64,000 nucleotides of DNA from Candidatus Marinacidobacterium sp. (GCA_965262645.1 CBDHFO010000017.1:540024-604023), one strand, 5' to 3'; counted from the first letter of the stretch, positions 19,516-62,786 are shown. The notes: generated by a model from the sequence alone, not told the origin. A program made the numbers and translations.

Positions 19516-19711
19516 TTAGCAGCCTGTGGACAAAGTGGCGTGAGCGCCGAGAGTGGCGAGGCGCCCGGCCGACAAGGCGCGATTCGGGCGGCATACCGGG
19601 TGCATTCCGACCGAATCGCAACGCCGAGCGTAGGGGCTCAGCCGGGATGGATCGCCGCTCGAGCCCCCACCGGGAGAACTGGGCCGCGTGACTGTGTTCA
19701 CCGGCTGCTAG
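19516..19711. mobile_element. MITE (TIR family CAGCCTGTGG/CCACAGGCTG, YTAR termini), copy between scpA and scpB
   Basis: ttagCAGCCTGTGGacaaagtggcgtgagcgccgag...caccggctgcTAG. The terminal TAG is the scpA stop codon. Confidence 0.7.
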
Positions 19712-20535
19712 GCGGCAAGCCCGGCGATGCGGATGGGGCCGAAGGTCTCGTCCTGACCCACCGAGATCCGGCGGCGGCGGGCCAGTTCCAGGACCGCGAG
19801 GAACGCGGCTACCAGGGTCCCGCGGTCCACGTTGCCTTCAATCACTTCAAAGAGCAGTTCCTCGAAGTCCTGCTCGAACCCGGGCGGCACCGCCGTCTCG
19901 ATGCGTCGGATCAGGACCGCCATGGAGATCCGGCGCTCGGGAAGCGGTACCCGGGGGCGCGACTTCGCCCGGACGACGACCCGCCGAAAAGCCTCGACCA
20001 CCGCGAAGAGGTCCACCTGCAGCAGACTTTCGATCTCGGAGCCTGCCGCATCGCCGTGGGCCGCGCCGTCCTCCACGAGTCCGAGGGTGGGCTGTCTGAC
20101 CCATACCGATCGGCGGGCTTCGAGGCTCTCCCGGAGCCGGCGGGCCGCGTCCCGATAGCGGGCGTAGTCCCGGAGGCGATCCTCCAGGTCGGCCAGCGGG
20201 TCCCCCTCCGCCCCCGTGGCGGCCGGGCTCGGCCGGGGGAGCAGGCGCCGCGCCTTGATGCGCAGCAGCGCGGTCGCCATCTTGAGGAATTCGGATCCCA
20301 CCCGGAGATCCAGCATCTCGAGGAGCTCGAGCGTCTCCAGGTACTGCCGGGTGATGGAAGCGATTTCGATCCGGAGCGGATCGGCCTGCCCCTCGCGCAC
20401 CATGCGGAGGAGCAGTTCGAGCGGACCGTCGAATCCGGCCTCGGCGGGCGAATCCTCGCCGCCGTCGAAGCGGAGGTGAAACCCCTGGCCGGGGGTCCCG
20501 AGTTCGGTCTCGGGTTGGTAGAGGACCGCTTTCAT
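19708..20535 (-). CDS. scpA: Segregation and condensation protein A
   Basis: 275 aa from the internal ATG (MKAVLYQPE...). Kleisin-like ScpA. 4-nt overlap with trpS upstream. Confidence 0.85.
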   Translation of the reverse strand: MKAVLYQPETELGTPGQGFHLRFDGGEDSPAEAGFDGPLELLLRMVREGQADPLRIEIASITRQYLETLELLEMLDLRVGSEFLKMATALLRIKARRLLPRPSPAATGAEGDPLADLEDRLRDYARYRDAARRLRESLEARRSVWVRQPTLGLVEDGAAHGDAAGSEIESLLQVDLFAVVEAFRRVVVRAKSRPRVPLPERRISMAVLIRRIETAVPPGFEQDFEELLFEVIEGNVDRGTLVAAFLAVLELARRRRISVGQDETFGPIRIAGLAA

Positions 20536-21551
20536 GCGACGGGCAAGCGAACCGCGGCGCGCACGCGTTCCATGGTGGCGCGGGCCACCTCCGACGCTTC
20601 CCGCCGGCCGGCGGCCAGCACGTCCCGCACGTCGTCGGGCCGCTTTTCGTATTCCTGCCGCCGCTCGCCGATCGGCGCGATCTCGGCGACCAGGTGGTCG
20701 GCCAGCGCGTTCTTGCACTGGATGCAACCGATCCCGGCCGAACGACAGCCCTCGGCCGCCCAACTCCGGGTCTTGTCGTCGGAGAAGATGCGGTGGAGAT
20801 CGAAAACGGGGCATTTCGCCGGGTCGCCGGGGTCGCGCAGCCGCTTCCTCGCCGGATCGGTCATCATCGTCCGCAGCTTCCCGCGGACGGCGGCCTCGTC
20901 CTCGGCGATCCCGATCACGTTCCCGTAGCTCTTGGACATCTTCCGCCCATCGGTACCCGGCAACCGCGGGGACGGAGTCAGGCGGACATCCGGCTCGGTG
21001 AGCACCGATCCGTAGATGGAGTTGAAGCGGCGGGCGATTTCCCGGGTCAACTCGACGTGGGGCTTCTGGTCCGCTCCCACGGGGACCACCGCGGCGTCGT
21101 ACATGAGAATGTCCGCCGCCTGCAGGACGGGATACCCCAGGAAGCCGTAGGTATGGAGGTCCTTTTCCTTCAGCTCCTTGATCAGCTCCTTGTAGGTGGG
21201 AACGCGCTCCAGCCAGCCGAGCGGGACGACCATCGACAGGAGCAGATGGAGTTCCGCGTGTTCGGGAACCTGCGACTGGATGAACAGGGTGCACCGTTTC
21301 GGATCGAGCCCCACCGCCAGCCAGTCCGTCGCGATCTCGAGCGTGCTCTTCCGGAGATCGCTGGTATCCCGGTAGTCGGTGGTCAGCGCGTGCCAGTCGA
21401 CGATGCAGTAGAAGGCGCTGAACTCGTCCTGCATCGCCACCCAGTTGCGGTAGGCCCCCACCAGGTGTCCCAGGTGGGAGGACCCGGTGGGCCTCATCCC
21501 GGAGAGGAGGCGCGGACGCCCGCTACGTGGTTTCGTATCCGTTTCTGTCAT
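20532..21551 (-). CDS. trpS: Tryptophan--tRNA ligase
   Basis: Class I aaRS. RPTGSSHLGHLVGA (HIGH-like), KMSKS motif present (GRKMSKSYGN). Confidence 0.9.
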   Translation of the reverse strand: MTETDTKPRSGRPRLLSGMRPTGSSHLGHLVGAYRNWVAMQDEFSAFYCIVDWHALTTDYRDTSDLRKSTLEIATDWLAVGLDPKRCTLFIQSQVPEHAELHLLLSMVVPLGWLERVPTYKELIKELKEKDLHTYGFLGYPVLQAADILMYDAAVVPVGADQKPHVELTREIARRFNSIYGSVLTEPDVRLTPSPRLPGTDGRKMSKSYGNVIGIAEDEAAVRGKLRTMMTDPARKRLRDPGDPAKCPVFDLHRIFSDDKTRSWAAEGCRSAGIGCIQCKNALADHLVAEIAPIGERRQEYEKRPDDVRDVLAAGRREASEVARATMERVRAAVRLPVA

Positions 21552-21747
21552 AAACAGCCTGTTCACGCGGTGTTCGACCGGCGATGCATCCCGCCTGAAC
21601 CGCGCCGCTTCGCGTCGCTCATCGTTGCGCTTCGGTCGAAATACACTCGGGCCAGTTCTCCCGGTGGGGGCTCCTCCCTCGCGCGCCTTGTCAGTCGGGC
21701 GCCTCACCGGTCTCGGCACTCGCGTCACTTTATCCACAGGCTGTTGA
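21551..21747. mobile_element. MITE (same TIR family), copy abutting the trpS start codon
   Basis: ataaACAGCCTGTTCAC...ttctcccggtgggggctcc...atCCACAGGCTGTTGA. Confidence 0.65.
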
Positions 21748-21758
21748 GCGTCGGCATT

Positions 21759-24604: not shown

Positions 24605-24880
24605 CGGACGGGAGAGACCGCCGGTCTTCGGACCGGTGAGGCGGCCCGCAGGCTGGGAAACCGCGGATCGCCAACCGCGAAGAAGCGCAGGAACGGCTTG
24701 GAACGCCGACCTCTGGTCGGCATCGCGCGGGAGCGCGAAACCAGCGCCGATGACACTGCGCTATGCCCACGTGAGTTACGGGCGGACCCGATCGAGAGGG
24801 TTTCTCCCGGTGGGGCCCGGCACCGTTGCCGGAGACGGACGAAACACCGACTGCCACTTACTGAGAGTTCAGAATAATGA
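24605..24880. repeat. Dispersed repeat (GGTCGGCATCGCGCGGGAGCGCGAAACC family, reverse orientation) plus AT-rich promoter/operator region of hipB-1
   Basis: Near-identical over about 110 bp to the reverse complement of 54660-54740. Contains the TTTCTCCCGGTGGGG motif. Confidence 0.6.
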
Positions 24881-29164: not shown

Positions 29165-29282
29165 ACGACCGCCGCGACCAGGGCCCTGACGGCGCCCCAC
29201 TGCACAGGCCGATCCATCCAGACGCCAAGCTGCGCGGCCATTCCTAGAGTGTCCATTTCCTGAACCGTCTCGGTCTGGGCAG

Positions 29283-29545
29283 GAACATGTCGCACCGGCC
29301 CGATCCGCCGGGCGAACATGTCGCTCCAGCGGAGTCGGCTGGCCGGGTGAACATGTCGCAGTGGGGGCCGGCTGGGCCGCTACATGTCGCAATAGCCGGA
29401 ATTCCGGGCCCACATGTCGCTGTAGAGCAGCCGGCTGGACGGGAACATGTCGCACTAGCCCGATCCGCCGGGCGAACATGTCGCATTAGCGGAGCCGGCG
29501 GGACGTCAACATGTCGCAGTAGCCAAATCCGGGAACCGGTAAATT
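29283..29545. repeat. Array of 8 tandem ~32-bp units: conserved GAACATGTCGCA followed by a variable CCGG-centred palindrome (iteron/centromere/operator-like; not CRISPR)
   Basis: ACATGTCGC at about 29285, 29316, 29349, 29382, 29412, 29445, 29476, 29508. Spacings are 30-33 bp. Units 1 and 6 are nearly identical. Confidence 0.8.
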
Positions 29546-30356: not shown

Positions 30357-30369
30357 GCGGTCGCGCTAC

Positions 30370-30500
30370 CCGGGATCAGGCGGAGGTGCGGCCCTTACGC
30401 TGGCAGAGCGCAGCGTCACGGGTGCGGGTTTCGCGCTCCCGCGCGATGCCGGCCGGAGACCGGCGCTCCCGCCGTCCCCGCGCTTCTTCCCGATTGGCGT
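30370..30500. repeat. Dispersed repeat (GGTTTCGCGCTCCCGCGCGATGCCG family), copy 3
   Basis: ...gggtgcgggtttcgcgctcccgcgcgatgccggccgg... between the carbonic anhydrase and katG 3' ends. Confidence 0.6.
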
Positions 30501-49553: not shown

Positions 49554-49562
49554 GGATCGCCC

Positions 49563-49700: not shown

Positions 49701-49878
49701 TAACAGTCTGAGGATCAAGTGGCGTGAGCGCCGAGACCGGTGAGGCGCCCGGCTGGCAAGGCGCGATTTGAGAGAAACACCGGGCGTATTTCGACCGAAT
49801 CGGAACGCAGAGCGTAGCGATTCAGCCGGGATGCATCGCCGGTCGAACGCCGCGTGACTTTATGCAAAGGCTGTTCAG
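49700..49878. mobile_element. MITE (TIR family, degenerate: TTAACAGTCTGAGG...CAAAGGCTGTTCAG)
   Basis: Internal sequence caagtggcgtgagcgccgagaccggtgaggcgcccgg is nearly identical to the 19516 and 63740 copies. Confidence 0.65.
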
Positions 49879-49978
49879 CTCCCGGCTAGACTCACCGGCC
49901 GGGCCGGACGCTTATCGGCCCGCGCCGGGAGATTCTAGGAGGCGGGGCCTCCTCCTCCCTGGCAAAGGGAGCGCAGTA

Positions 49979-52735
49979 ATGACTACTCCACGACGGATGC
50001 AGTGGGTCAGGCCTCTGACTCTCGCGCTGTCGGTGGCGGCCATCGTCGCTACCGGGGCCTCGTCCGCCTCGGCCCAACTTCGCCCCCTCGCCGAAGACCG
50101 GGGAGCCACGGGGCTCGGTCTCGCGCTCCGAAAGATCGAGAGCGGGGTCTCGGTGCTCACCATCACCGCGCACCCCGACGACGAGAACAATGCCCTGCAC
50201 GCCTTGCTGAGCCGCGGCCTGGGCGCCAGGGTCTCGCTTCTGACGCTTACCCGCGGCGGCGGCGGGCAGAACGAGATCGGCCCCGAACTTTTCGATGGAC
50301 TGCGGTTGCTCCGCACGGAAGAACTCCGGACGTCCCATCGGCTCGACGGGGTGGAGCAGTACTTCGGGATGGTCTCCGACTTCGGATACTCGTTCAGCGT
50401 CGAGGAGACTTTCGACAAATGGGGCCACGAGCAGACGCTCGGCGAGGTGGTGCGGATGCTCCGGACCCTTCGGCCAGACGTGGTCATCACCCTGCCGCCT
50501 GCCGGGACCGGCGGCGGCCAACACCATCAAGCGGCGGGCCGCCTCGCCCACGAGGCCTTCGACGCGGCCGGAGATCCGGACCGCTTCCCGGAGCACGCGG
50601 AACTGGGCCTGATGCCCTGGCGGCCGCTGCGCCTGCTGGTGGGAGGCGTCGGCGGCGGGTCGGCGGCCGGCGAGGCGCGGACCGTCCGCATCGAGACCGC
50701 GGTCTGGGATCCGCTTCTCGGCCGCACCTATGCGGACCTCGGACAGGAAGCGCGTTCGGCCCACCGCTGCCAGGGGATGGGCCAGGTGCGTGGCGGCCCG
50801 ACCGGATTTCCCTCAGTGCTGGTGGAAACGCGCGGAGCGCAGGACGGGGCCGCGCCCGGGCCGGAAGGGGCCGACGGCCTTTTCGCGGGGATTCCGACCG
50901 GACTCGAACGGCTCGAAGCGTTCGTCGCCGGGACTCCGGAGGCGACCGTCGTGACGCGCAGGAAACTGGCTTCCTTTGGAAAGGCCGTCGCCCAGGCCGC
51001 CGAGGCGTTCTCCGCGGTCTCCCCCAGCGACTCGCTTCCCGGCCTGCGAAGGGCGCTGATCGCGGGTAGGGGGCTGCGCCGGGACACCCTCCCGGAAGGG
51101 CTCACCGCGGAGAGCCGTACGGAAATCGAACACCGCATGGCGTTTCGGTACATCCAGATTCAGGAAGCCATTGCGCTCGCCCACGGACTCGTGGTGGATG
51201 CGGTGGCGGAGTCCGGGGTGGTTGTCCCGGGCAGCAGTTTCGGGGCGCAGATCTCGGTCCTTGGCGGCCCCACCGCGGCCACGATTACCGGAATCGGAAT
51301 CGAGGTACCCGACGGCTGGAAGGTCAGCCAATCGCCGGCGTCCCCGGGAACGCCTCCAGGTCCGGGGCCGCGCCGGCGCCCCCTGCCTCCTCCGCTCGGC
51401 CCTGACGATCTCCCCCTCGAATCGAGCCCTGCCAGCCCGCTCCGCGCGGAGTTCGGAGTCTCGGTGGGGAACGCCACCGCCCTGAGCCGCCAGCCCTGGG
51501 AAGATGTCCCCGGGATGGACCGCTTCGAGGCGGTATCCACGGATGTGTTCGGCCTCCCCGCGCGGCCCCCTCAGGTGGTGGCGCGCGTCGCCTTCGAGTC
51601 CGCGGGTGTTCCCGTCGAGATCCGCAGCCCGGTCGAGTATCGCTACGACGGTCCCTGGGTCGGGACGGAAAAACAAAAGGAAGTCTCGATCCTGCCGCTC
51701 GCTTCGGCGGCGGTCTCACCGGAGATTGTGGTCTTCCCCAGGGGGCAGAACCCTCGCCGACTGACCGTCTCCGTGGTGTATCGAGGCGTTGAAGCCGCGG
51801 ACTTCGAGGCTTCGCTCGAGGCGCCGGCGGGGTGGACCGTCCTCCCGCAGAGCAGGCCGGTCTCCTTTGCCGGACCCGGTGAGACGCGGGTCGAGTTCGA
51901 AGTGAGCGCCCCGGACGGCGCGGCGGACGGCAGTTACCGGCTGGGCGCCGCGGTACGGCCCACCGGGGGCGGTGACCCCTTCACCGAAACCGTCCAGGAG
52001 GTCGCCTACCACCACATCGAGACCCGCTACCTCTTCCGGCCCGCCGAGGCTTCGGCACGGGTGCTGGATGCAACCGTGGCGCCGGTCCGCGTCGGATACG
52101 TCGAAGGGGTTGGGGACGAAGTCGCCGAGGCCATCGCCCAGCTTGGATTGCCCCTGACCTTCCTCGACGAACAGGCGCTGGCCGAGGGAGATCTCTCGGT
52201 GTTCGACACCATCGTCCTCGGAGTGCGGGCCTACCTGGCCCGGCCGGACCTCAGGACCCACAACCAGCGCCTGCTCGATTTCGTGGCCGGCGGCGGCACG
52301 CTGCTCGTCCAGTACAACAAGTTCGAGTTCAACGCGGGGCCCTGGGGGCCTTACCCGGTGTCCGTCGGCCGGGGGCGGATCACCGCGGAAGACGCCCCGA
52401 TGCAGGTGCTGATTCCGGATCATCCGGTCTTCGCCGGGCCGAACCGGATCGACGAGACCGATTGGGACGGCTGGGTGCAGGAGCGCGGGCTCTATTTCCT
52501 GGCGCCGGGGGGCGATCCCGCCTATCGGGATCTGCTCGCCTCGGAGGATCCCTTCGAATACAACGCGGGAGAAAAGCGCGGCATCCTGGTGGAGGCACGG
52601 CACGGCGAGGGACGGTGGCTCTACCTCGGTCTGGGACTCTGGCGGCAGCTTCCTGCCGGCACCCCGGGCGCCTATCGACTGCTCGCGAATCTCCTGAGCC
52701 TCGGATACCAACCGGACACGACCGACGAACCCTGA
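49979..52735 (+). CDS. PIG-L/LmbE-family N-acetylglucosaminyl deacetylase with large C-terminal beta-rich domains, secreted
   Basis: 918 aa from an internal ATG. Signal peptide. LTITAHPDDENNAL (HPDDE zinc motif). Confidence 0.7.
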   Translation: MTTPRRMQWVRPLTLALSVAAIVATGASSASAQLRPLAEDRGATGLGLALRKIESGVSVLTITAHPDDENNALHALLSRGLGARVSLLTLTRGGGGQNEIGPELFDGLRLLRTEELRTSHRLDGVEQYFGMVSDFGYSFSVEETFDKWGHEQTLGEVVRMLRTLRPDVVITLPPAGTGGGQHHQAAGRLAHEAFDAAGDPDRFPEHAELGLMPWRPLRLLVGGVGGGSAAGEARTVRIETAVWDPLLGRTYADLGQEARSAHRCQGMGQVRGGPTGFPSVLVETRGAQDGAAPGPEGADGLFAGIPTGLERLEAFVAGTPEATVVTRRKLASFGKAVAQAAEAFSAVSPSDSLPGLRRALIAGRGLRRDTLPEGLTAESRTEIEHRMAFRYIQIQEAIALAHGLVVDAVAESGVVVPGSSFGAQISVLGGPTAATITGIGIEVPDGWKVSQSPASPGTPPGPGPRRRPLPPPLGPDDLPLESSPASPLRAEFGVSVGNATALSRQPWEDVPGMDRFEAVSTDVFGLPARPPQVVARVAFESAGVPVEIRSPVEYRYDGPWVGTEKQKEVSILPLASAAVSPEIVVFPRGQNPRRLTVSVVYRGVEAADFEASLEAPAGWTVLPQSRPVSFAGPGETRVEFEVSAPDGAADGSYRLGAAVRPTGGGDPFTETVQEVAYHHIETRYLFRPAEASARVLDATVAPVRVGYVEGVGDEVAEAIAQLGLPLTFLDEQALAEGDLSVFDTIVLGVRAYLARPDLRTHNQRLLDFVAGGGTLLVQYNKFEFNAGPWGPYPVSVGRGRITAEDAPMQVLIPDHPVFAGPNRIDETDWDGWVQERGLYFLAPGGDPAYRDLLASEDPFEYNAGEKRGILVEARHGEGRWLYLGLGLWRQLPAGTPGAYRLLANLLSLGYQPDTTDEP

Positions 52736-52777
52736 AACGGATTCCGTTCGCAAACGCCAGCAAGCGGCCGTCCGATG

Positions 52778-52970
52778 AAATTTAGTGTTCTTTAGTCAGA
52801 CTTCTAAATTTCGAGACGTTCCTTGTCCTCTGTCAGCGAAATCAGCGCGAACGGACATCAGGGGGATCCCTTACGGTGAGAGCGAAGCCGCTGTTCGGGC
52901 AGTTCATCCGCAGGGAACTCGCCAGCGCAACCGCCTGAAGTTTAGAGTCGTTTAGCCTGGATCCTAAATT
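52778..52970. promoter_or_regulatory. Pair of 34-bp AT-rich palindromic motifs (TTTAG-N5-TTTAG-N9/10-CTAAATT) 159 bp apart in the leader of the DASS transporter gene
   Basis: aaatTTAGtgttcTTTAGtcagacttCTAAATTt (52778-52811) and gaagTTTAGagtcgTTTAGcctggatcCTAAATTc (52937-52970) in 70% GC DNA. Confidence 0.5.
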
Positions 52971-53237
52971 CGGGCCAACATCGAGAGGACCGATCCGGTT
53001 GCGGGGCTCACCGCCCGCCCATACCGGAGGGGTGGGGATACCCCGCGGAAACCCGGACGCCGGATCGCGTACTCTCTCGCGGCCTTGTCCCGCCATCTTC
53101 GGTACCCGCGCACCGGTTCCCAATGGGGTCCCGAAACCGGATGACACGCGAGCGGATCGGACTGGTCCTCGGGCTGGACCCTGCTGGTCGGGATCGCCGT
53201 CTTCCCGATTCCCGGAATCCCCGACGAGGCGCGCCGG

Positions 53238-54590
53238 ATGCTGGCGGTGGCCGCGATCATGGCCACCTGGTGGGTTACCGAGGCGGCGCCGCTGGCGGTG
53301 ACGTCGCTGCTGCCGCTGGTGCTGCTCCCGGTGCTCGGGATCACGAACGCGGCGGGAGCGGCCGCTCCCTACGCGAACCACCTCGTCTACCTCTTCCTCG
53401 GGGGATTCATGATCGCCCAGGCGATGCAGCGCTGGGACCTGCACCGCCGGTTCGCTCTCCGGATCGTGATGGCGATGGGCAGCTCCCCGCCCCGCCTGGT
53501 GCTCGGGTTCATGGTGGCGTCCGCCTTCCTCTCCATGTGGGTCTCGAACACGGCCACCACGGCGATGATGATGCCCATCGGAGTGGCGGTGGTCGCGGAG
53601 ATCTCGCGCGCGGTACACGGAGAGCGGCGCCCCGCGCCCGGGGAGTTCCCCTTCGCGGTGTGCCTGATGCTCGGCTGCGCCTACGGCGCGTCCATTGGGG
53701 GATTCGCAACCCTGATCGGGACCCCTCCCAACGTGTTCCTCGCCGGCTTCCTCGAGGAAGAGATGGGCATCCAGATCACCTTCGTGCGTTGGCTCGCTTT
53801 CGCGATGCCGCTGACCATCATCTTCCTGCCGGCGACCTGGCTGTGGCTGACCAAGTTCGCATTTCCGATCCGCATCCGGGATATCCCCGGCGGGGTGGCG
53901 CCCGTGCGCGCCGCCTACGCGGCGCTCGGGCCGATCTCGACCCCGGAAAAGAGACTCACCGCCTTGTTCGGCGGGACTGCTCTCCTTTGGGTGCTGCGTC
54001 CGGTCTGGACCCAGTTTCTGCCAACCGGGAGCTTCATCACCGACTCCACGATCGCCATGGCGGCGACGGTGCTGTGCTTCCTCGTTCCCGCCGGGAACGG
54101 CGGCTCCGGGGAGCGCATCCTGAACTGGGAGTGGGGAGTGCGGATCCCCTGGGATGTCCTCATCCTGATCGGTGGGGGGTTTTCGCTCGCGAACGGGTTG
54201 GAGGTGAGCGGCCTCTCGCAAGTCCTCGGTGACCGCCTTGCCGGGGCCTCGGCGCTCCCCACGGCCCTGTTCGTGGTGCTGGTGGTGGTCTTCATCATTC
54301 TGCTGACCGAACTTGCCTCGAACCTGGCCTCGACCGCGATGATGGTTCCCATCCTCGCCGCGGTGGCCGTCGGCGCCGCCATCCCGCCTCTGATGCTGCT
54401 GGTGCCGGTCACCGTCGCCGCCTCCTGCGCCTTCATGCTGCCGGCGGCCACTCCTCCGAACGCCATCGTGTTCGGGACCGGCCACTTCACCATCCCCCAG
54501 ATGGTGCGCGCCGGAATCGGCGTGAACATCATTGGCGCCATCCTCACCTGCCTGTTCGCCGTCTTCTGGCTGCCGGTGGTGTTTGGATGA
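53238..54590 (+). CDS. DASS/SLC13-family divalent anion:Na+ symporter (N-terminus apparently displaced into another frame starting at 53123)
   Basis: 450 aa. 53123 frame gives MTRERIGLVLGL and the +1 frame gives LLVGIAVFPIPGIPDEARRMLAVAAIMATWW. Together these form a canonical DASS N-terminus. Confidence 0.8.
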   Translation: MLAVAAIMATWWVTEAAPLAVTSLLPLVLLPVLGITNAAGAAAPYANHLVYLFLGGFMIAQAMQRWDLHRRFALRIVMAMGSSPPRLVLGFMVASAFLSMWVSNTATTAMMMPIGVAVVAEISRAVHGERRPAPGEFPFAVCLMLGCAYGASIGGFATLIGTPPNVFLAGFLEEEMGIQITFVRWLAFAMPLTIIFLPATWLWLTKFAFPIRIRDIPGGVAPVRAAYAALGPISTPEKRLTALFGGTALLWVLRPVWTQFLPTGSFITDSTIAMAATVLCFLVPAGNGGSGERILNWEWGVRIPWDVLILIGGGFSLANGLEVSGLSQVLGDRLAGASALPTALFVVLVVVFIILLTELASNLASTAMMVPILAAVAVGAAIPPLMLLVPVTVAASCAFMLPAATPPNAIVFGTGHFTIPQMVRAGIGVNIIGAILTCLFAVFWLPVVFG

Positions 54591-54763
54591 TGGGGTGGAG
54601 GGCGGTGGTGTTTGGATGATGGGGCGGAGGGCGGTCGCACGGTGAGCGTCGTCCCATCCGGGACCGGGAGAAAGTGCGGAACTCACATCGGCACTACGCA
54701 GCATCATCGACGCTGGTTTCGCGCTCCCGCGCGATGCCGACCTGGAGGTCCGCGTTCCCGCAC
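54591..54763. repeat. Repeat element (GGTTTCGCGCTCCCGCGCGATGCCG family, copy 4) flanked by a 47-bp duplication of the DASS gene 3' end
   Basis: 54544-54590 and 54764-54815 are about 94% identical (tcctcacctgcctgttcgccgtcttctgg...). Internal tandem duplication of ggtggtgtttggatgatgggg. Confidence 0.65.
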
Positions 54764-54853
54764 GTCCTCACCTGCCTGTTCGCCGTCTTCTGGTTGCCGG
54801 TGGTCTTCGGCTGATCACTTCGACTGATCACGGGTCATTAGCATTCCGGTGCC

Positions 54854-55537
54854 ATGAGATTCGCCGCCAAGGACCGCTTCACCACCCGCCTGTGGGCCGG
54901 GATCGAACCCATCTATGCGGAGATCCTGCGCCACCCCTTCCTCGACGGCCTCGCCGACGGCACCCTCGACCGGCAGGTATTCCGCTTCTACGTGATCGAG
55001 GATGCGCTCTACCTCCACGAATTCGCGCGGGCCGTGGCCATCCTCGGCGGCAAGGCTCCGCACCCGGACATCACCGAGGCGCTCTGCGGTGACGCGGTAG
55101 CCACGATTCAGGGAGAGCGCGAACAACTGGGGCAGTTCCTGACCGAGCTCGGCAGCTCCCGCGAGGAACTCTTCACCCGCCCGCCAGCTCCCACAAACCG
55201 CGCCTACACCAGTTATTTCCTGTCGCAGGTCCATTCGCGGCCCTTCCACGAAGGACTCGCCGCCGTCCTTCCCTGCTACTGGATCTACGCCGAAGTGGGC
55301 AAGGAACTGCTGAAGCGTCCTCCCTCGCCGGATCCGCTCTACCGCCGCTGGATCGAAAGCTACGGCAGCGAGGAGTACGACGCGGTCGTGCAGCGCGTCG
55401 TGCGGCTGACGGATGAAGTCTCCGAAGAACTCGGCGACGGCGCCCGCCGGGCGATGGCCCGCCACTTCGCCATGAGTTCACGCTATGAGTGGATGTTTTG
55501 GGACATGGCCTGGCGGCAGGAAGCCTGGCCGTTGTAG
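54854..55537 (+). CDS. tenA: Thiaminase II / aminopyrimidine aminohydrolase
   Basis: 227 aa. TenA/PqqC fold motifs (FRFYVIEDALYLHEFARA, LPCYWIYAEVG with catalytic Cys). Confidence 0.85.
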   Translation: MRFAAKDRFTTRLWAGIEPIYAEILRHPFLDGLADGTLDRQVFRFYVIEDALYLHEFARAVAILGGKAPHPDITEALCGDAVATIQGEREQLGQFLTELGSSREELFTRPPAPTNRAYTSYFLSQVHSRPFHEGLAAVLPCYWIYAEVGKELLKRPPSPDPLYRRWIESYGSEEYDAVVQRVVRLTDEVSEELGDGARRAMARHFAMSSRYEWMFWDMAWRQEAWPL

Positions 55538-55600
55538 CCGCCTTCCGCGGAAGCTTCCGCGGCGCTGCTGCTCAGGATCCCCGGCGGAGCCGCTCCGGTC

Positions 55601-55787
55601 TTAACAGCCTGTGGCAAAACCCACGCGGCGTTCGGCCGGCGATCCATCCCGCCCGAACCACTCCGCTTCGCTCCGTTCTTCGTTGCGTTTCGGTCGAAAT
55701 ACACCCGGTATTCCTCCCTCACGCGCCTCGTCGGACGGGCGCCTCACCGACCTCGGCGCTCACGTGAGTTTCACCACAGGCTGTTAA
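55601..55787. mobile_element. MITE with perfect 14-bp TIR and TTAA ends (TTAACAGCCTGTGG...CCACAGGCTGTTAA)
   Basis: Seen directly. The right-end TTAA supplies the TAA stop of the aldehyde dehydrogenase gene. Confidence 0.75.
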
Positions 55788-57145
55788 CGAATCCAGACCG
55801 TCTTCTTGTTCGTGAACTCGATGAGCCCGTCCGGGCCCAGTTCACGGCCGAAACCGCTGTCCTTCGTCCCACCGAAGGGGACGCGGGGATCCGATTTGGT
55901 GATGCCGTTCACGAAGACGGCCCCGGATTCGATTTCCGGCACGAGCCGTTCCGCCCGCTTCGGGTCGGATGTCCAGAGCGAAGACCCCAGCCCATAGTTC
56001 GTCCGGTTGGCGATCTCCACCGCCTCCGCCTCGTCGCCAAAGGGGACCACCGTAGCGACCGGCCCGAAGAGTTCCTCGTCGGCGGCCGGGGCTCCCGCGG
56101 GTGGCCCCGCCAGAATCCCGGTGGCGGAAAAGAACCCGCGTTCCGGCGCGGTCCCCCGGTAGAGGAGTTCCGTGCCGGCGCGAACCGAGTGCGCGACCTG
56201 CTCCTCGAGACGGTCGCGGAGATCTTGCCGGGCCAAGGGTCCCACTGCGGTCTCCGGCGCCAGCGGGTCCCCCACCGTCGTTTCGCGAAACCGCGTCTCA
56301 AAGACCGAAAGGAACGCATCGAGCACCGTTCGCTGCACGAGAAAGCGTTTGGCGGCGATGCAGCTCTGCCCGGAATTGATGAGCCGCGCCCCGGCGCCCG
56401 CTGAAGCCGCCTCCTCCACATCGCAGTCCTCGAACACGATGAAGGGATCGCTCCCGCCGAGCTCGGCGACCATCGGCTTGAGACTGCGCCCCGCGACCGC
56501 GGCGACCTCGCTGCCGGCGCGCGAACTCCCGGTGAGCGTCACTCCCCGAATCCGCCGGTCGGCGATGCAGGTGGCCGCCTGCTCGTTTGTCAGGAACAGA
56601 TTCTGGAGAAGCCCCTCCGGCGCGCCCGCCTCGCGATACAACTCGACGATCCGGAGCGCGCACTGGGGCACCGAGGGCGCGTGCTTGAGCACCATCGGGT
56701 TCCCGGTGAGGAAGTTGGGCGCCGATACCCGGATGACCTGCCAGAGCGGGAAGTTCCAGGGCATGACCGCAAGGATCGGCCCGCTGGGATCGAAGCGCAC
56801 GAAGGCGTCGCTCCCGTCGGATTCGTAGTGCCGAGGGCGGAGCGACTCCTCCGCGGTCTCGGCGTAGTGCCGCGCCACCCAGGCGCACTTTTGGGCCTCG
56901 GCGACTCCCTGGGCGAGCGGCTTTCCCATCTCGAGAGCCATGAGCTCCGCCAGTTCATCCGCCTGCGCACACAACAGATCCGCCAGGCGCTCGTTCACGG
57001 CGCGCCGCTCGGCAAAGGGAGACCGGCGCCAGGAGCGGAACGCGGCATCGGCGCGGGAGAGGGCTGCTTCGACCTCGCGGCCGGTAGCCGTCGGAAACTC
57101 GGCCACCAGTTCCTCGGTGGCGGGGTTCAGGGAGCGGTAGAGCAT
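55784..57145 (-). CDS. NAD(P)+-dependent aldehyde dehydrogenase (succinate-semialdehyde dehydrogenase-like)
   Basis: 453 aa from the internal ATG MLYRSLNPATEEL. ELGGSDP (Glu), SGQSCIAAKRF (Cys) catalytic motifs. The 80-codon N-terminal extension is spurious. Confidence 0.9.
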   Translation of the reverse strand: MLYRSLNPATEELVAEFPTATGREVEAALSRADAAFRSWRRSPFAERRAVNERLADLLCAQADELAELMALEMGKPLAQGVAEAQKCAWVARHYAETAEESLRPRHYESDGSDAFVRFDPSGPILAVMPWNFPLWQVIRVSAPNFLTGNPMVLKHAPSVPQCALRIVELYREAGAPEGLLQNLFLTNEQAATCIADRRIRGVTLTGSSRAGSEVAAVAGRSLKPMVAELGGSDPFIVFEDCDVEEAASAGAGARLINSGQSCIAAKRFLVQRTVLDAFLSVFETRFRETTVGDPLAPETAVGPLARQDLRDRLEEQVAHSVRAGTELLYRGTAPERGFFSATGILAGPPAGAPAADEELFGPVATVVPFGDEAEAVEIANRTNYGLGSSLWTSDPKRAERLVPEIESGAVFVNGITKSDPRVPFGGTKDSGFGRELGPDGLIEFTNKKTVWIR

Positions 57146-57182
57146 GGGGTCCGGAGCCCGCGGCGGGTACGACGGGCCGATG

Positions 57183-58385
57183 TCACGGGCGGGCGCCCGG
57201 AGGGTGTAAGCGGTTGTACTTTCGGCCGACCTCCAGCAGGTCTTCGATCGAAATCGCCTCCCGGGTGTTTCCGTTCCGGCCGGTAACGGTGGTGGCCTTG
57301 AGCATCGAGTTATAGACCGCCTCCTCGGTGGCCTCGATCGCGGCCTGGAAGAGCGGCGACAACCGGTCGCCTCGCAGGACGCCACCGTCCTCCGTCGGGG
57401 AGTCGCTGCCGAACGAACTCCGGAGAGACTCGGCCGACGAGAACGCGATCACGAAATCGCCGCTTCCGTGGGACGAGGTGGCGCCGGTGCGGGCGAGACC
57501 GAGCATGACCCGGCGAGCCAACCGGGTGAGACCCAGCGAGCGAATCGGGGCATCGGTGGCGACCACCATCATGATGGAGCCGTCGGGATTGTCCTGGGAG
57601 TCCCCTCCCGCGGCGTCATCCGCGCCGCGCAGTTGGTCGCGGAGGTAGTAGCGGTCCAATTCCTCGCCGACGGGGATCCCGTCCATGATGAGTACTCCTC
57701 CGTAGTTGCTCTGAACGAGCGTCCCTACGGTGTATCCGCCGAGGCTCTCGGGGAGACGCCGCGAGGAAGTGCCGATCCCGCCCTTCCAGCCAAAGACGGA
57801 AGTTCCGGTTCCGGCCCCCACCGCACCCTCGGCTACCAGTCCCGAGGAAGCGCTCCGGATCGCCTCGAGCACGTGGCTTTCCTTCACATGGAGTCCCCGG
57901 ATGTCGTTGAGGTATCCGTCGTTCGTCTCCCCGACGACCGGATTCACCGAACCGACGTTTTCGTTGCCGGGAAGTCCGAGAACGTGGGTCACGACGGCGC
58001 GCGCGGCATCCCACACGGAGAGCGTGTTGGTCAGCACGATCGGGGTCTCAATGGTCCCGAGTTCCACCACCTGGGTGGATCCGACCAGTTTGCCGAAGGC
58101 GTTGCCGATATGGATCGCACCCGGAACCTTGTCCTGAAAGATGTTTCCGGCGTGGGGCAGAATCGCGGTGACCCCGGTTCGGATGTGATCCCCCTCCGTG
58201 ATGGTCACCTGCCCGACCTGGACCCCGGGTACGTCGGTGATCGCGTTTTGCGGTCCGGGGTCGAGAACTCCGGGCGCCAGACCGATGTCCCGTGCCCGGG
58301 GCCGGGCATCCCCTTGCCCGAGGGCCAGCGGAGCTGCGAGCAGACCAGCGGCGAGCGCGGCCAGAATGCGGTGCACGTTTTTCAT
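57183..58385 (-). CDS. DmpA/S58-family (P1) aminopeptidase, secreted
   Basis: 400 aa. Signal peptide. DmpA/OAT fold motifs (GxGTGTSVFGWKGGIGTSSR). Confidence 0.75.
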   Translation of the reverse strand: MKNVHRILAALAAGLLAAPLALGQGDARPRARDIGLAPGVLDPGPQNAITDVPGVQVGQVTITEGDHIRTGVTAILPHAGNIFQDKVPGAIHIGNAFGKLVGSTQVVELGTIETPIVLTNTLSVWDAARAVVTHVLGLPGNENVGSVNPVVGETNDGYLNDIRGLHVKESHVLEAIRSASSGLVAEGAVGAGTGTSVFGWKGGIGTSSRRLPESLGGYTVGTLVQSNYGGVLIMDGIPVGEELDRYYLRDQLRGADDAAGGDSQDNPDGSIMMVVATDAPIRSLGLTRLARRVMLGLARTGATSSHGSGDFVIAFSSAESLRSSFGSDSPTEDGGVLRGDRLSPLFQAAIEATEEAVYNSMLKATTVTGRNGNTREAISIEDLLEVGRKYNRLHPPGARP

Positions 58386-58498
58386 CAGAACCTCCGGAAT
58401 CGGCAGCCGGAACTACCAACCCCGGAGAATACGGGAACCGTGTCGCCGCCGGACCAAACGGAACATTCTTGACACAAGATTCGTAGCGTCCACCGGTC

Positions 58499-59305
58499 AT
58501 GGTTCACGGGAAAGCGCGCGGCGCGGGGCTTGGCGGACGCCCTCTCGCTCTGGTCCTCGGGGTGTCGGCGCTGGCGGGCACTGCGAATTGCGGCGTCCCG
58601 TTCCAGCAGGAGCCGAACGTTGAAGAAACGGTCAGCTTTACCGAGCCGTTTCGGGCAGGCGAGCTTCTCGATCTGAGGAACATCGACGGCCGCGTCGCGG
58701 TCGCCCCCTGGGACCGGGAAGAAGCGGAGATCGTCGCACGCAAGGTCGGACCGAGCAGCGCGGCGCTCGAAGAAATCCGGGTGGAGGTCAACCGCTCGTC
58801 GCGGGGACTCCAGGTTCGCACCCGATATCCGAAAAAGAGCCGGATGTGGGGACAGCGATACGGCACCGTGCACTATTCCATCCGGCTGCCGCAGACGGCC
58901 GATCTCAGGATCTCCACGGTCCACGGGCCCATCGAAGTGGATGGGATCTCGGGGGAGGTCGAAGCACAGACGGTGAGCGGCTCCCTCCGGCTGACCGGAC
59001 AACGGGGGAGCGTGAACGCCAAGACGGTCAACGGGCGCATCGAGTGTGAGCTCGACAGCTTCGGCGAGGGAGAAAAACACTCCCTCCGCACGGTGAACGG
59101 CGGGGTCCAGGTGACGCTCGGCCCCGAAGCCAGCGGCCAGGTGGACGCGAGGGCCATCAATGGGCGGGTCATCATCGAGCTGGCCGGCCTGGAGCATCTC
59201 GACACTCCCAGCCGGCGCCACAAGAACGTGCGGGTCGGCGACGGTGGCGGCGAATGCCGGGTACGTACCGTAAACGGGACCATCCACATCCTCAATAGTC
59301 AGTAG
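58499..59305 (+). CDS. DUF4097-family putative adhesin/beta-helix lipoprotein
   Basis: 268 aa. Lipobox near TANCG. Repeated V(N/D)G.I.(V/I) beta-strand units (TVNGRIECEL, TVNGGVQVTL, AINGRVIIEL, TVNGTIHIL). Confidence 0.6.
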   Translation: MVHGKARGAGLGGRPLALVLGVSALAGTANCGVPFQQEPNVEETVSFTEPFRAGELLDLRNIDGRVAVAPWDREEAEIVARKVGPSSAALEEIRVEVNRSSRGLQVRTRYPKKSRMWGQRYGTVHYSIRLPQTADLRISTVHGPIEVDGISGEVEAQTVSGSLRLTGQRGSVNAKTVNGRIECELDSFGEGEKHSLRTVNGGVQVTLGPEASGQVDARAINGRVIIELAGLEHLDTPSRRHKNVRVGDGGGECRVRTVNGTIHILNSQ

Positions 59306-59440
59306 ACCGGATCCCGCACCGTCCGGTGCTGCTGGTCCGGACACCTTTACGCTGGCGAGCCATCCTCCGGTCGCCTGGGCGGGTGGCGCCAGCGAATCCG
59401 CAAGCTTCGGGCAGAATCACCCGGATCGCGAGGATTTCCG

Positions 59441-59929
59441 ATGATTCAGCAGTTGACGTATCTCTATGGTTTCAACCTGGGCGTCGCCCGGACGCTGGTG
59501 GACGACCTGACCCCCGAACAGATGGTCGAACAGCCGCACGGCGTGGTCAATCATCCGGCTTGGTCGCTCGGCCACCTGGTGATGACGGCCGATGGACTTG
59601 CCCGGCTACTCGGGCTCGAGTCGGAGGTCCGCGAGGGTTGGGGGGAGGTGTTCGCGACCGGGGGAATTCCTTCGAATGACCCGTCCCGCTACCCCTCGAA
59701 AGACGAACTGCTCGACGCGCTCGAGGCACAGCACCGGCGCAACGCTGCCGCGGTGGAACGGGTCGAGCCTGCGTGGTTTGACGCGCCGAACCCGAATGAG
59801 AGGCGGCGGAAGCGCTTTCCGACGGTCGGGGACGTGGCCATCTTTCTCATGACCTCGCACGAGATGCTCCACCTCGGCCAGGTGGCGGCCTGGCGGCGGG
59901 CGATGGAGCTGGCGCCAGCCCGCAGGTAA
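59441..59929 (+). CDS. DinB/YfiT-like metal-dependent four-helix-bundle protein
   Basis: 162 aa. His ligands in HPAWSLGHLV and HEMLHLGQ. Confidence 0.7.
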   Translation: MIQQLTYLYGFNLGVARTLVDDLTPEQMVEQPHGVVNHPAWSLGHLVMTADGLARLLGLESEVREGWGEVFATGGIPSNDPSRYPSKDELLDALEAQHRRNAAAVERVEPAWFDAPNPNERRRKRFPTVGDVAIFLMTSHEMLHLGQVAAWRRAMELAPARR

Positions 59930-59999
59930 CACCCGCGAGCAGCGCCCACGGAAGGGGCGGCTGTTCTCCATTCCGCTCACCGGATATAAACCCCGGTCC

Positions 60000-61022
60000 A
60001 TGTACCAGTTTGTGCGTTTCGGAATCCTTCCTCTCCTCCTCGCGGCCGCTTCTCAGGGAGCGGCACAGCCGCTTCCGGAGGTCCACCTCATCGGCACCGG
60101 AGGCACGATTTCCGGGGGCGCGGGAGGACCGCTGAACGCCGGCGACCTCCGCGCAGCGCTGCCCGCCCTTTCTTCGGTGGCTTCGGTCACCACGGAGGAC
60201 TTCGTTCGGATCGGAAGTTCCCGGATGCACCCGGAACTCCAGTTCCAGCTCGCCGAGCGCATCGCCGCGGTCTTCACCGAGCGCCCGGGACTCGCCGGGA
60301 TCGTGGTAACGCATGGCACGGACTCGCTCGAGGAAACGGCCTTCCTCCTGGACCTGGTGCTTCCGTCCGGTCGGCCGGTCGTCTTCGCCGCCGCACAGCG
60401 TCCACCGAGTTACGAGGACTCCGACGGACCCCGCAACCTGCTGAATGCGATCCGCGTCGCCGGCTCCGGCAGAACCCGCGATCTTGGAGTTCTCGTCGTC
60501 CTGAACGGTCAGATCCACGCCGCGCGTGAGGTCAAGAAGACCCATTCGATCGCTCTCCACGCCTTCGTCTCACCGGACACCGGGCCGGTGGGCATGGTCG
60601 ACGACGGAGAGGTCTTGCTCTTCAGCAGCCCCGAGCGCCGCATCCATCTTCCCTCCGCGAGTGTGGAGCCGCGGGTGGAACTCGTCCGTCTGACCGCCGG
60701 CGGTGGCGCCACCGCTATCCGCGGAGCGGTGGAGGCCGGCGCCCCGGGCATCGTCGTCGAGGTTTTCGGGCGAGGCAACGCGCCTCCACCCGTCACCGAA
60801 GCGGTTTCCGCCGCCATCGAAGCGGGCGCGCTCGTGGTTTACACCACCCGCACCGGAGCCGGACGGGTGGTGCTCTCCGCTGCCCAGCGCGATGCCGGAG
60901 TGATCTCAGGGGGAGACCTGGACGGTCTCAAAGCGCGGATCCTGCTGGCTGTCGCGCTCGGAGCGGGCCGGACCGGCGAAGAGATTGCCGCCGCGTTTCG
61001 AACCCTGGCCGGGGCCGGGTAG
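60000..61022 (+). CDS. L-asparaginase (type II-like), periplasmic
   Basis: LIGTGGTISGG (TGGTIAG-like Thr nucleophile motif), VVTHGTDSLEETAFLL. Confidence 0.85.
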   Translation: MYQFVRFGILPLLLAAASQGAAQPLPEVHLIGTGGTISGGAGGPLNAGDLRAALPALSSVASVTTEDFVRIGSSRMHPELQFQLAERIAAVFTERPGLAGIVVTHGTDSLEETAFLLDLVLPSGRPVVFAAAQRPPSYEDSDGPRNLLNAIRVAGSGRTRDLGVLVVLNGQIHAAREVKKTHSIALHAFVSPDTGPVGMVDDGEVLLFSSPERRIHLPSASVEPRVELVRLTAGGGATAIRGAVEAGAPGIVVEVFGRGNAPPPVTEAVSAAIEAGALVVYTTRTGAGRVVLSAAQRDAGVISGGDLDGLKARILLAVALGAGRTGEEIAAAFRTLAGAG

Positions 61023-61099
61023 CCCGTCGAGCGGTCCCCGGGCGGAGCCACCGGTGCCGTCGAGTTGGCACCCGTGGCCTTTGGTTGCGTTCGGCGTCG

Positions 61100-62020
61100 T
61101 CAGCGAAGTACGAGGCGGAGCGGCGGCCCTTCCCCCCGAGAGAGAACGACCGCCTCCACCGGTTCGAGGGTGACCACGATGTATTCCCCGACGCGGTCAC
61201 CGACTGCCACGAGCGTTGTCTCGCCGCGATAGAAGAGCGCCGCCCGGACCGGAGTTCCGGAGCCGACATCGACGAAGCCGTGGAGTTCGGGGGTCTCGGA
61301 AGCAGGCGTCGCGACGGGAACCGCCGTTTCCGGGGGCTTCTCGGATGGCTCGTCCAGAATGGGGGCCGCAGGCGGGGCCGGCTCCACCTCGTCCGGTCGC
61401 TTCGTGGAGGCGGAAGCCGTCCGTTCGAGCGCGGGCACTGACTCCAGCCAGGCGAACAACGTTTCCATTCGCGGATCGTCGGCGAAACGAACCGCATCCA
61501 CCGCAGCGAACGAGACCGCCGGGTCCGGCCAGAGGGCGAAGACCGTAGCCGTGAGCGTTCCGAGGCCGCCACGGACCGCGAGGGTCGCCCGCTCGGTGCG
61601 AAGCGGCCACCCTCTTCCTTCGACCGCGGACAGGAAACGGGACAGTGCGGCGGGATCACCCAGCAGCGTGACCCGGGCCTCGGCGCCGACTGTCCCTTCC
61701 GGCGGACGAACGAGCGGCTGGAGCCGGGATGCCGAGAGTTCCACGCCGTGGTCCCCGGCCACCTGCAGGAAAAACGCGCGAACGGCCGCGGCCCCGGCGG
61801 GAGGGGGGGCGCGCTCGGCGAGCCTCTCCGCCACCCGGAGAAAGTGCTTGCGCCGCTCCCGCTCCCGCTCGGTGGCGGTGTCTTCGAGTGCCGACCGAGC
61901 CTGCTCCTCGAGTGCCGCAGCAAGTTCATCGGCAGCGTGGCGCTGCTCGGCCCAGACGAACCAGGCGAGCAACCCGGACAGCAGAGCCAGCAGGAACCGG
62001 AGCCGAAGGCGTTCCTTCAT
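61100..62020 (-). CDS. Hypothetical bitopic periplasmic protein, possibly a PilO/PilP-like pilus-assembly component
   Basis: 306 aa. N-terminal TM helix, coiled-coil (ELAAALEEQARSALEDTATERERERRKH), C-terminal beta domain resembling PilP (LVAVGDRVGEYIVVTLEPVEAVVL). Confidence 0.4.
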   Translation of the reverse strand: MKERLRLRFLLALLSGLLAWFVWAEQRHAADELAAALEEQARSALEDTATERERERRKHFLRVAERLAERAPPPAGAAAVRAFFLQVAGDHGVELSASRLQPLVRPPEGTVGAEARVTLLGDPAALSRFLSAVEGRGWPLRTERATLAVRGGLGTLTATVFALWPDPAVSFAAVDAVRFADDPRMETLFAWLESVPALERTASASTKRPDEVEPAPPAAPILDEPSEKPPETAVPVATPASETPELHGFVDVGSGTPVRAALFYRGETTLVAVGDRVGEYIVVTLEPVEAVVLSRGEGPPLRLVLR

Positions 62021-62024
62021 ACGG

Positions 62025-62567
62025 CTAGGGACGCCCCACCTCGAGTTGAGCGGTAATCCGTACGAGCACCGCGCCGTCCGTCTGACGCGTCTCGCTGATC
62101 ACTTCCGTGGAGAGCACCGAATCGTGATTCGCCAGTCCCGACAGGAAGCGGGCAACGGCAGCGGCAGAAGTCGCGTCAGCCGCAATGACTGCCTCCACTC
62201 GGCCGGAGCCCGTCGCGGGGCGGACCTCGAGCCCGGCGATCCGGATATCCGAAGGGGCGATCCCCATCACGGTGTCCAGTGCAGCACTGATGTCGGGGGC
62301 ATTGACCACCCCGGCGAGGAGCAGGACCGCCGCCTCCCGGGCGCGCTCGGGTTCGACGAGTGGCGCCGCGGCGCCTCCCGGACCGGATGACGGCAGCCCG
62401 CTCGAAGCTGAGAGCCCGGGCGCCGCCAGTTCCGCTCGCACTCCCCAGAGCGATGCGGCGCCCCACAAGACACTCACGAACATCCCGGCGACCAGCACGT
62501 CCAGCCCCCGGAGAACACCAGGGTGGACGCCCTTCCCGAGCTGAACGCCAAGGGGTATTCGAGCCAT
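62025..62567 (-). CDS. PilN-like bitopic membrane protein
   Basis: Internal ATG MARIPLGVQLGKG, TM helix VLVAGMFVSVLWGAASLWGV, periplasmic domain. The ORF's N-terminal 40 codons lie inside a MITE. Confidence 0.4.
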   Translation of the reverse strand: MARIPLGVQLGKGVHPGVLRGLDVLVAGMFVSVLWGAASLWGVRAELAAPGLSASSGLPSSGPGGAAAPLVEPERAREAAVLLLAGVVNAPDISAALDTVMGIAPSDIRIAGLEVRPATGSGRVEAVIAADATSAAAVARFLSGLANHDSVLSTEVISETRQTDGAVLVRITAQLEVGRP

Positions 62568-62568
62568 C

Positions 62569-62786
62569 GTTAAGCGCCTGTGGTGAAGCCCGCGTGAGCG
62601 CCGAGAGCGGGGAGGCCCAATTCTCCCGGTGGGAGGCGGTTCAGGCGGGATGGATCGCCGCTCGTTTCCGGAGCGGGGCGCAAGCACCGCGTAGACCCCG
62701 GAGCGGAAAGGACGGGGGGCGGGTTCACCCGACCCCCATCCCTTCTGGCTCGGGAACGCCGCGTGGGTTTTGCCACAGGCTGTTAA
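62569..62786. mobile_element. MITE (GTTAAGCGCCTGTGG...CCACAGGCTGTTAA) between the pilM-like and pilN-like genes
   Basis: TIR seen directly. The right-end TTAA gives the TAA stop of the upstream pilM-like ORF. Internal TCTCCCGGTGGG motif. Confidence 0.7.

Follow-up and report, generated by a model that had tools for sequence, protein, structure and literature searches.

A probable family of miniature inverted-repeat transposable elements with YTAR flanks in sponge-associated Vicinamibacteria

A stretch of 64,000 nt from Candidatus Marinacidobacterium sp. (GCA_965262645.1, CBDHFO010000017.1:540024-604023; G+C 68%), referred to below as the window, contains a dispersed repeat of about 185 bp. 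With good confidence, the repeats are regarded here as copies of a non-autonomous DNA transposon, a miniature inverted-repeat transposable element (MITE) with the core CAGCCTGTGG...CCACAGGCTG, inserted at YTAR (Y, pyrimidine; R, purine) with a presumed 4-bp duplication, at which stop codons of adjacent genes are passively kept. The element is small (183-291 nt), possesses no transposase gene and occurs in many dispersed copies (at least 136, plus 48, in 1.8 Mb of selected loci). Its ends, CAGCCTGTGG and CCACAGGCTG, are terminal inverted repeats, and the similarity from end to end reaches about 25 nt. The elements are recently mobile. A non-autonomous mobile inverted-repeat element with YTAR flanks and no transposase nearby had been proposed in the initial annotation of this DNA, and the analysis described below supports it.

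Copies of the element and filled and empty sites

Occurrences of CAGCCTGTGG with at most one mismatch number 13 in the window (shuffles 4.6 ± 2.0, maximum 10), and repeat finding together with alignment within the window assigns these matches to the ends of the dispersed repeat. Six clear copies and one diverged copy were obtained in this way, at a density of about one per 10 kb, which bears out the positions originally reported for the family. A profile made from four window copies gives full-length matches at 19516, 21551, 49700 and 55601. The copies and the start and stop codons adjoining them are listed below; coordinates of copies include the 4-bp flanks, and L029 is a locus on contig CAXXLQ010000004.1 that is 95-98% identical to window 16.7-23.1 kb.

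19516-19711, plus strand: copy between scpA and scpB; core 19520-19707; flanks TTAG / CTAG; the strand with the stable hairpin (X) is the plus strand of the window
19708-19710, minus strand: scpA stop codon TAG, inside the right 4-bp flank of the 19516 copy; TGA in L029
19508-19510, minus strand: candidate scpB start codon TTG, 6 nt outside the left flank of the 19516 copy and in frame with the ScpB Pfam match
20532-20535, minus strand: ATGA overlap of the trpS stop and scpA start; empty in the window, occupied by a 384-bp composite copy in L029
21551-21747, minus strand: copy between uvrC and trpS; core 21555-21743; degenerate flanks TAAA / TTGA; left terminal repeat with an 8-nt deletion; one 18-nt module inside
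21549-21551, minus strand: trpS start codon ATG, whose A is the first flank base of the 21551 copy
40364-40524, minus strand: copy with core 40368-40520; flanks GTAG / CTAA; centre deleted; three 18-nt modules
40365-40367: stop codon TAG of the SDR gene, at the 40364 copy
40536-40538: ATG of the amidohydrolase gene, 11 nt downstream of the 40364 copy
49700-49877, plus strand: copy with core 49704-49873; flanks TTAA / TTCA; in a divergent intergenic region, with no genuine gene stop
55601-55787, minus strand: canonical 183-nt copy; core 55605-55783; perfect flanks TTAA / TTAA
55784-55786, minus strand: stop codon TAA of the aldehyde dehydrogenase gene, at the 55601 copy
62570-62786, plus strand: copy with flanks TTAA / TTAA; an internal insertion splits the profile match
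62783-62785: stop codon TAA of the open reading frame (ORF) 62783-63718, at the 62570 copy
62565-62567: in-frame ATG of the next ORF, 2 nt past the flank of the 62570 copy
about 63747-63921, plus strand: diverged family member below the nhmmer threshold; one end well conserved (TAGCAGCCAGTGGACAAAG), the other weak (CCCACCGACTGTCG)

The four stop codons reported at element ends (scpA, SDR, aldehyde dehydrogenase and ORF 62783-63718) are all present there, and so are the reported starts of trpS and of the ORF at 62565-62567, together with the scpB candidate TTG; the amidohydrolase ATG joins them. The copy placed initially at 63735-63900 does belong to the family, but its coordinates had to be replaced by those of the diverged member with its single well-conserved end. 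The 'fragment' noted at 35860 turned out to be complete (35867 to about 36062) and to belong to a second family with the same terminal repeat. The names 'pilM-like' and 'pilN-like', given to two of the neighbouring genes, found no Pfam match at E ≤ 0.001.

Comparison of the window with L029 reveals filled and empty sites in both directions. The scpA/scpB copy is absent from L029, where 4 nt separate the scpA stop (TGA) from the scpB TTG; the empty site contains one T(C/T)AG, and the filled site of the window reads TTAG...CTAG. The copy is a recent insertion into a tight junction. Its insertion between the two genes had been recognized at first, whereas the overlap proposed for the pair is not seen in L029, the genes being separated by these 4 nt. 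At the trpS/scpA junction the window retains an intact ATGA overlap and the composite copy is found in L029 (4995-5379), where trpS gains three extra codons (Ser-Ser-Pro) within the element and then terminates at a TGA in the terminal repeat. The uvrC/trpS copy is common to the window and L029, the L029 version having three more 18-nt modules. Three further filled/empty pairs occur among the genome loci; for L008 and L089, the empty site has one CTAG and the filled site TTAG...CTAG. Tandem copies have a single flanking 4-mer in common.

The distribution of the family was followed in two sets of loci. The genome set includes the window and 105 loci listed by a pattern scan of species-representative genomes, in which at least 105 loci exist; the metagenome set includes 120 loci from a second scan with an internal motif, and 98 of these contain the element. 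At least 221 nhmmer hits and at least 136 full-length unique copies were found in the genome set, and the metagenome loci provided 48 further distinct full-length copies. Among the genome matches listed, all hosts but one are Acidobacteriota, mostly metagenome-assembled genomes of Vicinamibacteria including 'Ca. Marinacidobacterium'. Many loci of the metagenome set come from records MKWU01 and LXNJ01, both from Mediterranean sponge metagenomes, and MPMW01, an Aplysina aerophoba bin (PMC5099237, PMC5649159). A scan of viral contigs for the element gave 0 hits, BLAST against a plasmid collection gave one chance match of 34 nt, and a string search of the literature for the terminal repeat returned only enterovirus 5' ends, also a chance match. 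Such elements in sponge-associated Vicinamibacteria are not described in the literature searched, and the family, hitherto undescribed, belongs to an ordinary class of elements. From the Correia, ERIC and RUP-type MITEs, which it resembles in its behaviour, it differs by its host lineage, G+C-richness, YTAR flanks and growth in 18-nt steps. A high-copy, recently active MITE family is hereby documented for uncultured sponge-associated Vicinamibacteria. Spurious ORF starts and C-terminal extensions reach into its copies, symbiont assemblies and bins are affected, and the presence or absence of copies could be used as a strain marker.

Target site and retention of stop codons

TA is present in both flanks of 82 of the 136 copies of the genome set. 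From left to right, the outer bases of these flanks are Y and R, and the core-proximal bases R and Y. The two flank 4-mers are identical in 44 of the 82 copies (39 of the 44 being palindromic), and 71 copies have complementary proximal bases (A..T or G..C). The flanks appear to be described best by a 4-bp YTAR duplication with a subsequent change by which the proximal bases become able to pair. Both steps could be traced at the window/L029 site (inferred target TTAG, filled TTAG...CTAG) and in the L025 tandem (target TTAG, site TTAA...TTAG). The change of the proximal base could be realized via mismatch correction in a hairpin, template switching or carry-over of donor overhangs; a mismatch enclosed in the stem could be corrected, and a mismatch at the stem end could not.

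Alternatively, the element could be a MITE of the IS630/Tc1-mariner type, which duplicates only TA, has R as its first and Y as its last base, and prefers YTAR as a context. RUP (derived from IS630-Spn1) and other MITEs of this type have TA at both ends, a symmetric NTAN preference and mutual insertion (PMC2229807, PMC2170065), all of which have counterparts in the present family (TA at both ends, a symmetric NTAN context, copies nested in copies). TA-only duplication with invariant R...Y termini served as the initial working model: complementary proximal bases are more frequent than identical 4-mers (71 vs 44 of 82), the first tally of informative non-palindromic cases had 32 fitting this model vs 5 fitting a 4-bp direct repeat, and the empty window/L029 site requires one substitution under it vs two under the 4-bp model. 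It was dropped on the evidence of the proximal pair and is considered unlikely. Copies that are 100% or 99.4% identical internally carry TTAA/TTAC, CTAG/CTAG or TTAA/TTAA, and their near-identical relatives carry direct CTAT/CTAT and CTAA/CTAA; since internally identical copies carry different flanking bases, all four are set at each insertion. The proximal pair is the same in nearest-neighbour copies at the chance level (32 observed vs 32.4 expected), so it is not inherited with the lineage, and it has no link to sub-family markers (chi-square p = 0.24). It is also tied to the outer bases. The 58 isolated copies comprise 23 with palindromic direct flanks, 24 with one-position differences, 4 with non-palindromic direct flanks and 7 that fit no class; in 51 of them the two flanks have one or both outer positions in common, and only 3 agree at neither outer position with the proximal pair kept, whereas the TA-only model predicts about 13. 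No excess of palindromy was seen beyond the 4-bp flank. The 4-bp YTAR duplication envisaged in the initial annotation has consequently stood up to the comparison of near-identical and isolated copies better than duplication of TA with fixed termini, which is where the present family departs from RUP and its relatives. A 3-bp duplication in either register was rejected: it fits 77 of 82 copies and needs an asymmetric element with an inherited extra base, which the flanks of identical cores contradict.

Insertion sequences (ISs) of the IS5 group and of the IS701 type duplicate 4-bp YTAR targets (ISfinder families), and the present family shares with them the YTAR consensus and an apparent 4-bp duplication. 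An IS5/IS427-group parentage had been suggested in the initial annotation. Non-palindromic direct repeats such as CTAA...CTAA are common for IS5. They are rare in the present family (5 of 82), whose proximal bases are usually complementary. Neither a transposase of the IS5 or IS701 families nor a terminal repeat matching theirs was detected in the examined loci. Left-end/right-end pairs more than 450 nt apart in the genome and metagenome loci were nested MITEs only, and ten ORFs with low G+C at third codon positions (GC3) contained no transposase domain. Two candidates were rejected, namely the sole repeated 1.5-kb block, considered as a transposase carrier, which consists of two paralogous genes for M20 peptidases, and orphan terminal repeats, considered as IS ends, which were traced to the second family and a third one (about 410 nt) and not to an IS. 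Because a partner transposase was not found, the family is not assignable to IS5, IS701, IS630 or another superfamily.

Several observations weigh against a YTAR-specific MITE with a 4-bp duplication. Neither about 1.8 Mb of related DNA nor the plasmid collection nor the viral contigs yielded an autonomous element with matching ends. The insertion at the ATGA site of L029 is flanked by TG...TG and not by TA, adds two bases, and forms a junction that is not cleanly reducible to the empty site; eighteen nested copies, all with the junctions CAAA/TTCA, likewise lie outside the YTAR target rule. The complementarity of the proximal bases is not predicted by a plain 4-bp duplication, most flanks are palindromic and so uninformative about the length of the duplication, and three metagenome copies with TTAG/CTAA agree better with TA-only duplication. 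Finally, the coding flanks used for the analysis of stop codons below were judged by a GC3-based heuristic and not by a gene finder.

In the genome set, 109 element ends face an incoming gene within 200 nt. A stop codon lies exactly at the flank in 36 of them (TAA in 18, TAG in 16), and in a further 8 the reading frame enters the terminal repeat and ends at +13, +19 or +24; each remaining stop offset has at most three occurrences. The metagenome set replicates this picture, with a stop at the element end in 19 of 41 gene-facing ends. The reported capacity of the element to supply or retain stop codons is in this way supported. The targeting of stop codons that was suggested together with it is not needed. 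Counted per element, siting at a stop codon amounts to 36 of 137 (26%). In the same DNA, the YTAR sites without a copy fall into stop codons (83), intergenic sites (234) and coding sites (93), so that stop codons make up about 26% of the unoccupied non-coding sites, at which insertion disrupts no gene. Since occupancy matches the share of free sites, the enrichment is passive and does not reflect dedicated targeting; it is as expected for a YTAR-specific element under purifying selection. This provides a simple quantitative reason for the apparent 'choice' of stop codons in a G+C-rich genome, where YTAR is scarce and many YTAR sites are stops.

Start codons near copies, which had been noted too, show a broad proximity: start candidates spread over 0-15 nt from the element, often with a Shine-Dalgarno sequence directly past the flank, but the precise placement implied at first was not confirmed, as no fixed register is seen.

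The following course of events could account for these features. A transposase supplied from elsewhere would insert the element at 5'-YTAR-3' and duplicate the four bases. Such sites are rare in a genome with 68% G+C and lie mostly outside coding sequence, a quarter to a third of the harmless ones being TAA or TAG stops. Because YTAR contains TAR on both strands, a stop survives insertion from either side, and the duplicated flank would preserve the stop of a gene reading in from either direction. In tight operons, the ribosome site and start of the next gene would thereby be left a few bases past the opposite flank. The element itself is a near-perfect foldback, the arms of which co-evolve, with pairing kept on one particular strand.

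Foldback structure and alternative origins

For the two strands of the 55601 copy, the folding energies are -79 kcal/mol (z = -6.1) and -106 kcal/mol (z = -8.3). In an alignment of 52 canonical 183-nt copies, in which X denotes the more stable strand, the consensus is a rod of 64 pairs, 23 of which have changes on both sides. Paired cells account for 98.2% vs 92.2% in shuffled alignments, double-change cells number 167 vs 43.5 (both values attained in 0 of 500 shuffles), and pairing falls to 33-41% in slid registers. Wobble pairs are strongly asymmetric, with 305 G·T cells vs 16 A·C cells; at least five G·T cells occur in ten columns, and at least five A·C cells in none. All 52 copies have X as the more stable strand, with RNA and DNA parameters alike.

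A local hairpin is located in columns 111-127 of alignment A2 (window 55659-55675, minus strand), with loops C(GAA)G, C(GCA)G, C(GTA)G or C(AAA)G and compensating stems (e.g., CGCCGC/GCGGCG, CGCCTC/GAGGCG, CCCCGC/GCGGGG). A DNA mini-hairpin of unusual stability has the motif GCGAAGC.

In view of the foldback, it may be asked if the repeats are primarily structured RNAs or DNA hairpins with a function, e.g., as stabilisers of 3' ends, targets for RNase, attenuators or small RNAs, which selection would keep to the advantage of the host, their mobility being secondary. Compensatory covariation along the entire rod, including the hairpin with C(GNA)G-type loops, tolerance of wobble on one strand only and the very stable folds of both strands agree with such a role. 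Covariation of the arms can, however, also come from symmetric protein binding or from palindrome correction, and the orientation of the copies is only weakly biased, toward the weaker transcript: in co-directional gene contexts the mRNA carries the weaker-folding strand in 19 cases vs 9 (p = 0.09), and stop-bearing ends favour the weaker-folding transcript 24 to 12. A GC skew test gives a similarly weak trend, X falling on the C-rich strand in 98 cases vs 79. Selection for an RNA terminator is not supported, because the orientation runs opposite to its prediction; it is possible that the strongest hairpins were purged from operons. No copy contains a hairpin followed by a T-run or a sigma-70-like site, no T-run follows the elements, and the 10 terminator-like sites in 49000-64000 are all situated outside copies. 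In the window as a whole, the tRNA scan found no tRNA and no Rfam family reached the gathering threshold (0 matches). The terminator role put forward initially does not agree with these data, and a function as a terminator or in translational coupling is unsupported; any effect of the element on expression is an inference. In addition, presence or absence at essential operon junctions of near-identical genomes resembles insertion and not a conserved function. A host-selected RNA or hairpin is therefore regarded as improbable.

Palindromic units of the REP (repetitive extragenic palindromic) or BIME (bacterial interspersed mosaic element) type, or units otherwise generated by the host, e.g., mobilised by RAYT (REP-associated tyrosine transposase), would require no target duplication, the TTAA-like ends being part of the palindrome. 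The mosaic modular build, the 18-nt module common to other repeat families, the tandem and nested arrays, the foldback of the whole element and the lack of a detected transposase could all be explained in this manner. Such an origin nevertheless seems very improbable, since empty sites have one TA/CTAG and filled sites two, flank 4-mers differ between identical copies, and the 183-nt unit with true terminal inverted repeats at both ends is far above the size of REPs (20-40 nt). No RAYT gene was seen in the examined loci, whole genomes not having been scanned.

A YTAR-specific MITE also finds its closest parallels among known repeats of this class. Correia elements (CREE/NEMIS) of Neisseria are short non-autonomous inverted repeats with TA-containing ends that occur in hundreds per small genome, mostly at gene boundaries, form long hairpins in transcripts shared with neighbouring genes and lack a known partner transposase (PMC2229807, PMC10969869). 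The present family resembles them in its short non-autonomous inverted repeats, TA in the ends, many copies at gene boundaries and a partner transposase that was not found. In contrast, Correia elements are A+T-rich, 100-155 bp long, with 26-bp repeats, a site for IHF and TA-only duplication, whereas the element from Acidobacteriota, known here from its sequence, has about 65% G+C, 183 bp, growth in 18-nt steps and YTAR flanks. The whole-length imperfect palindromes at gene 3' ends also recall ERIC/IRU and YPAL/RU-2 of enterobacteria and yersiniae. According to De Gregorio et al. 2005, the orientation of an ERIC/YPAL-type element is said to set the folding of the transcript, G·U on one strand being an A·C mismatch on the other. 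An effect of ERIC/YPAL-type elements on mRNA decay is summarised in PMC10969869. The present family differs from them in having no sequence similarity, in belonging to another phylum and in a weak orientation bias toward the less stable transcript.

One-strand hairpin conservation, flank complementarity and the 18-nt module are details that insertion at YTAR by itself leaves unexplained. Tentatively, and with rather low confidence, it could be supposed that the foldback is more than a relic of two transposon ends, forms in vivo on one strand (single-stranded DNA or RNA) and is kept perfect by conversion (template switching or mismatch correction in the hairpin), which would also rewrite the host-derived proximal flank bases and copy 18-nt modules between the arms. 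If true, the family would be a natural record of quasi-palindrome correction at hundreds of loci, plus an 18-nt unit spreading among several repeat families.

The 18-nt module and related repeat families

Copies are 183, 201, 219, 237, 255, 273 or 291 nt long. They differ in 18-nt steps because the 18-nt module CCAGTTCTCCCGGTGGGG sits inside the MITE. In the listed genome loci and the window, 226 occurrences of the module lie inside copies and 70 elsewhere (296 altogether); the window has 10 vs 0.26 expected. Other repeat families harbour the module as well, and it is also seen in tandem arrays and by itself directly past genes. Its positions in the window are as follows.

15712-15729, 15886-15903, 34526-34543 and 39527-39544: standalone modules
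19665, 21652, 40393, 40442, 40460 and 62617: modules inside MITE copies

Nesting of copies occurs at a fixed point, profile position 55/56 (CATCCCGGC^TGAACCGCG), and builds L-L-L-R-R-R arrays. Two other families have ends in common with the MITE. The second, of about 195 nt, has the same type of terminal repeat (TAACAGCCCGTGGAAAGAGCACCCCGCA) and contains a GGGGAGGGG-AAA-CCCCTCCCC hairpin; more of its copies occur in L010, L035, L075, L091 and L093. In the third, of about 410 nt, the left 30 nt and the right 90 nt are those of the MITE, and an unrelated 300-nt interior contains modules of the D1 type (a repeat described below); these elements have no coding capacity.

L004 34-690; L002 2293-2928 and 5220-6073; L100 6415-7410; L090 708-1197: nested MITE copies
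35867 to about 36062, window: member of the second family
3612-3811, window: another member of the second family, in inverted orientation
L070 3034-3445; L077 7138-; L082 5461-; L195 9668-: members of the third family

Repeat D1 (about 95-170 nt, ending in GGTTTCGCGCTCCCGCGCGATGCCG) is situated at 54591-54815, 3' of a gene similar to Na/sulfate symporters. Its insertion is flanked by a 51-nt duplication of the 3' end of the gene (54541-54591 and 54765-54815), and the orthologous site is empty in L103 (4560-4625). The duplicated gene tail at D1 creates the small 'membrane ORF' at 54620-54814; the 45-aa membrane ORF listed in the initial annotation among the genes starting next to a copy is therefore apparently a pseudo-ORF derived from this duplication. 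Other copies of D1 in the window are given below.

6577-6671: D1 copy
24700-24826: D1 copy, inverted
30360-30469: D1 copy

Two further repeats of the window are of a different kind. Two 71-nt direct repeats (29275-29345 and 29435-29505), which are 160 nt apart, 86% identical and have two GAACATGTCGC motifs each, lie in the intergenic region upstream of the gene at 29583 and may be a regulatory repeat. The adjacent minus-strand ORFs 10773-11459 and 11460-12095 contain stretches of 76 nt and 40 nt that are alike at 82-85% (D9, D20), which suggests a tandem gene duplication.

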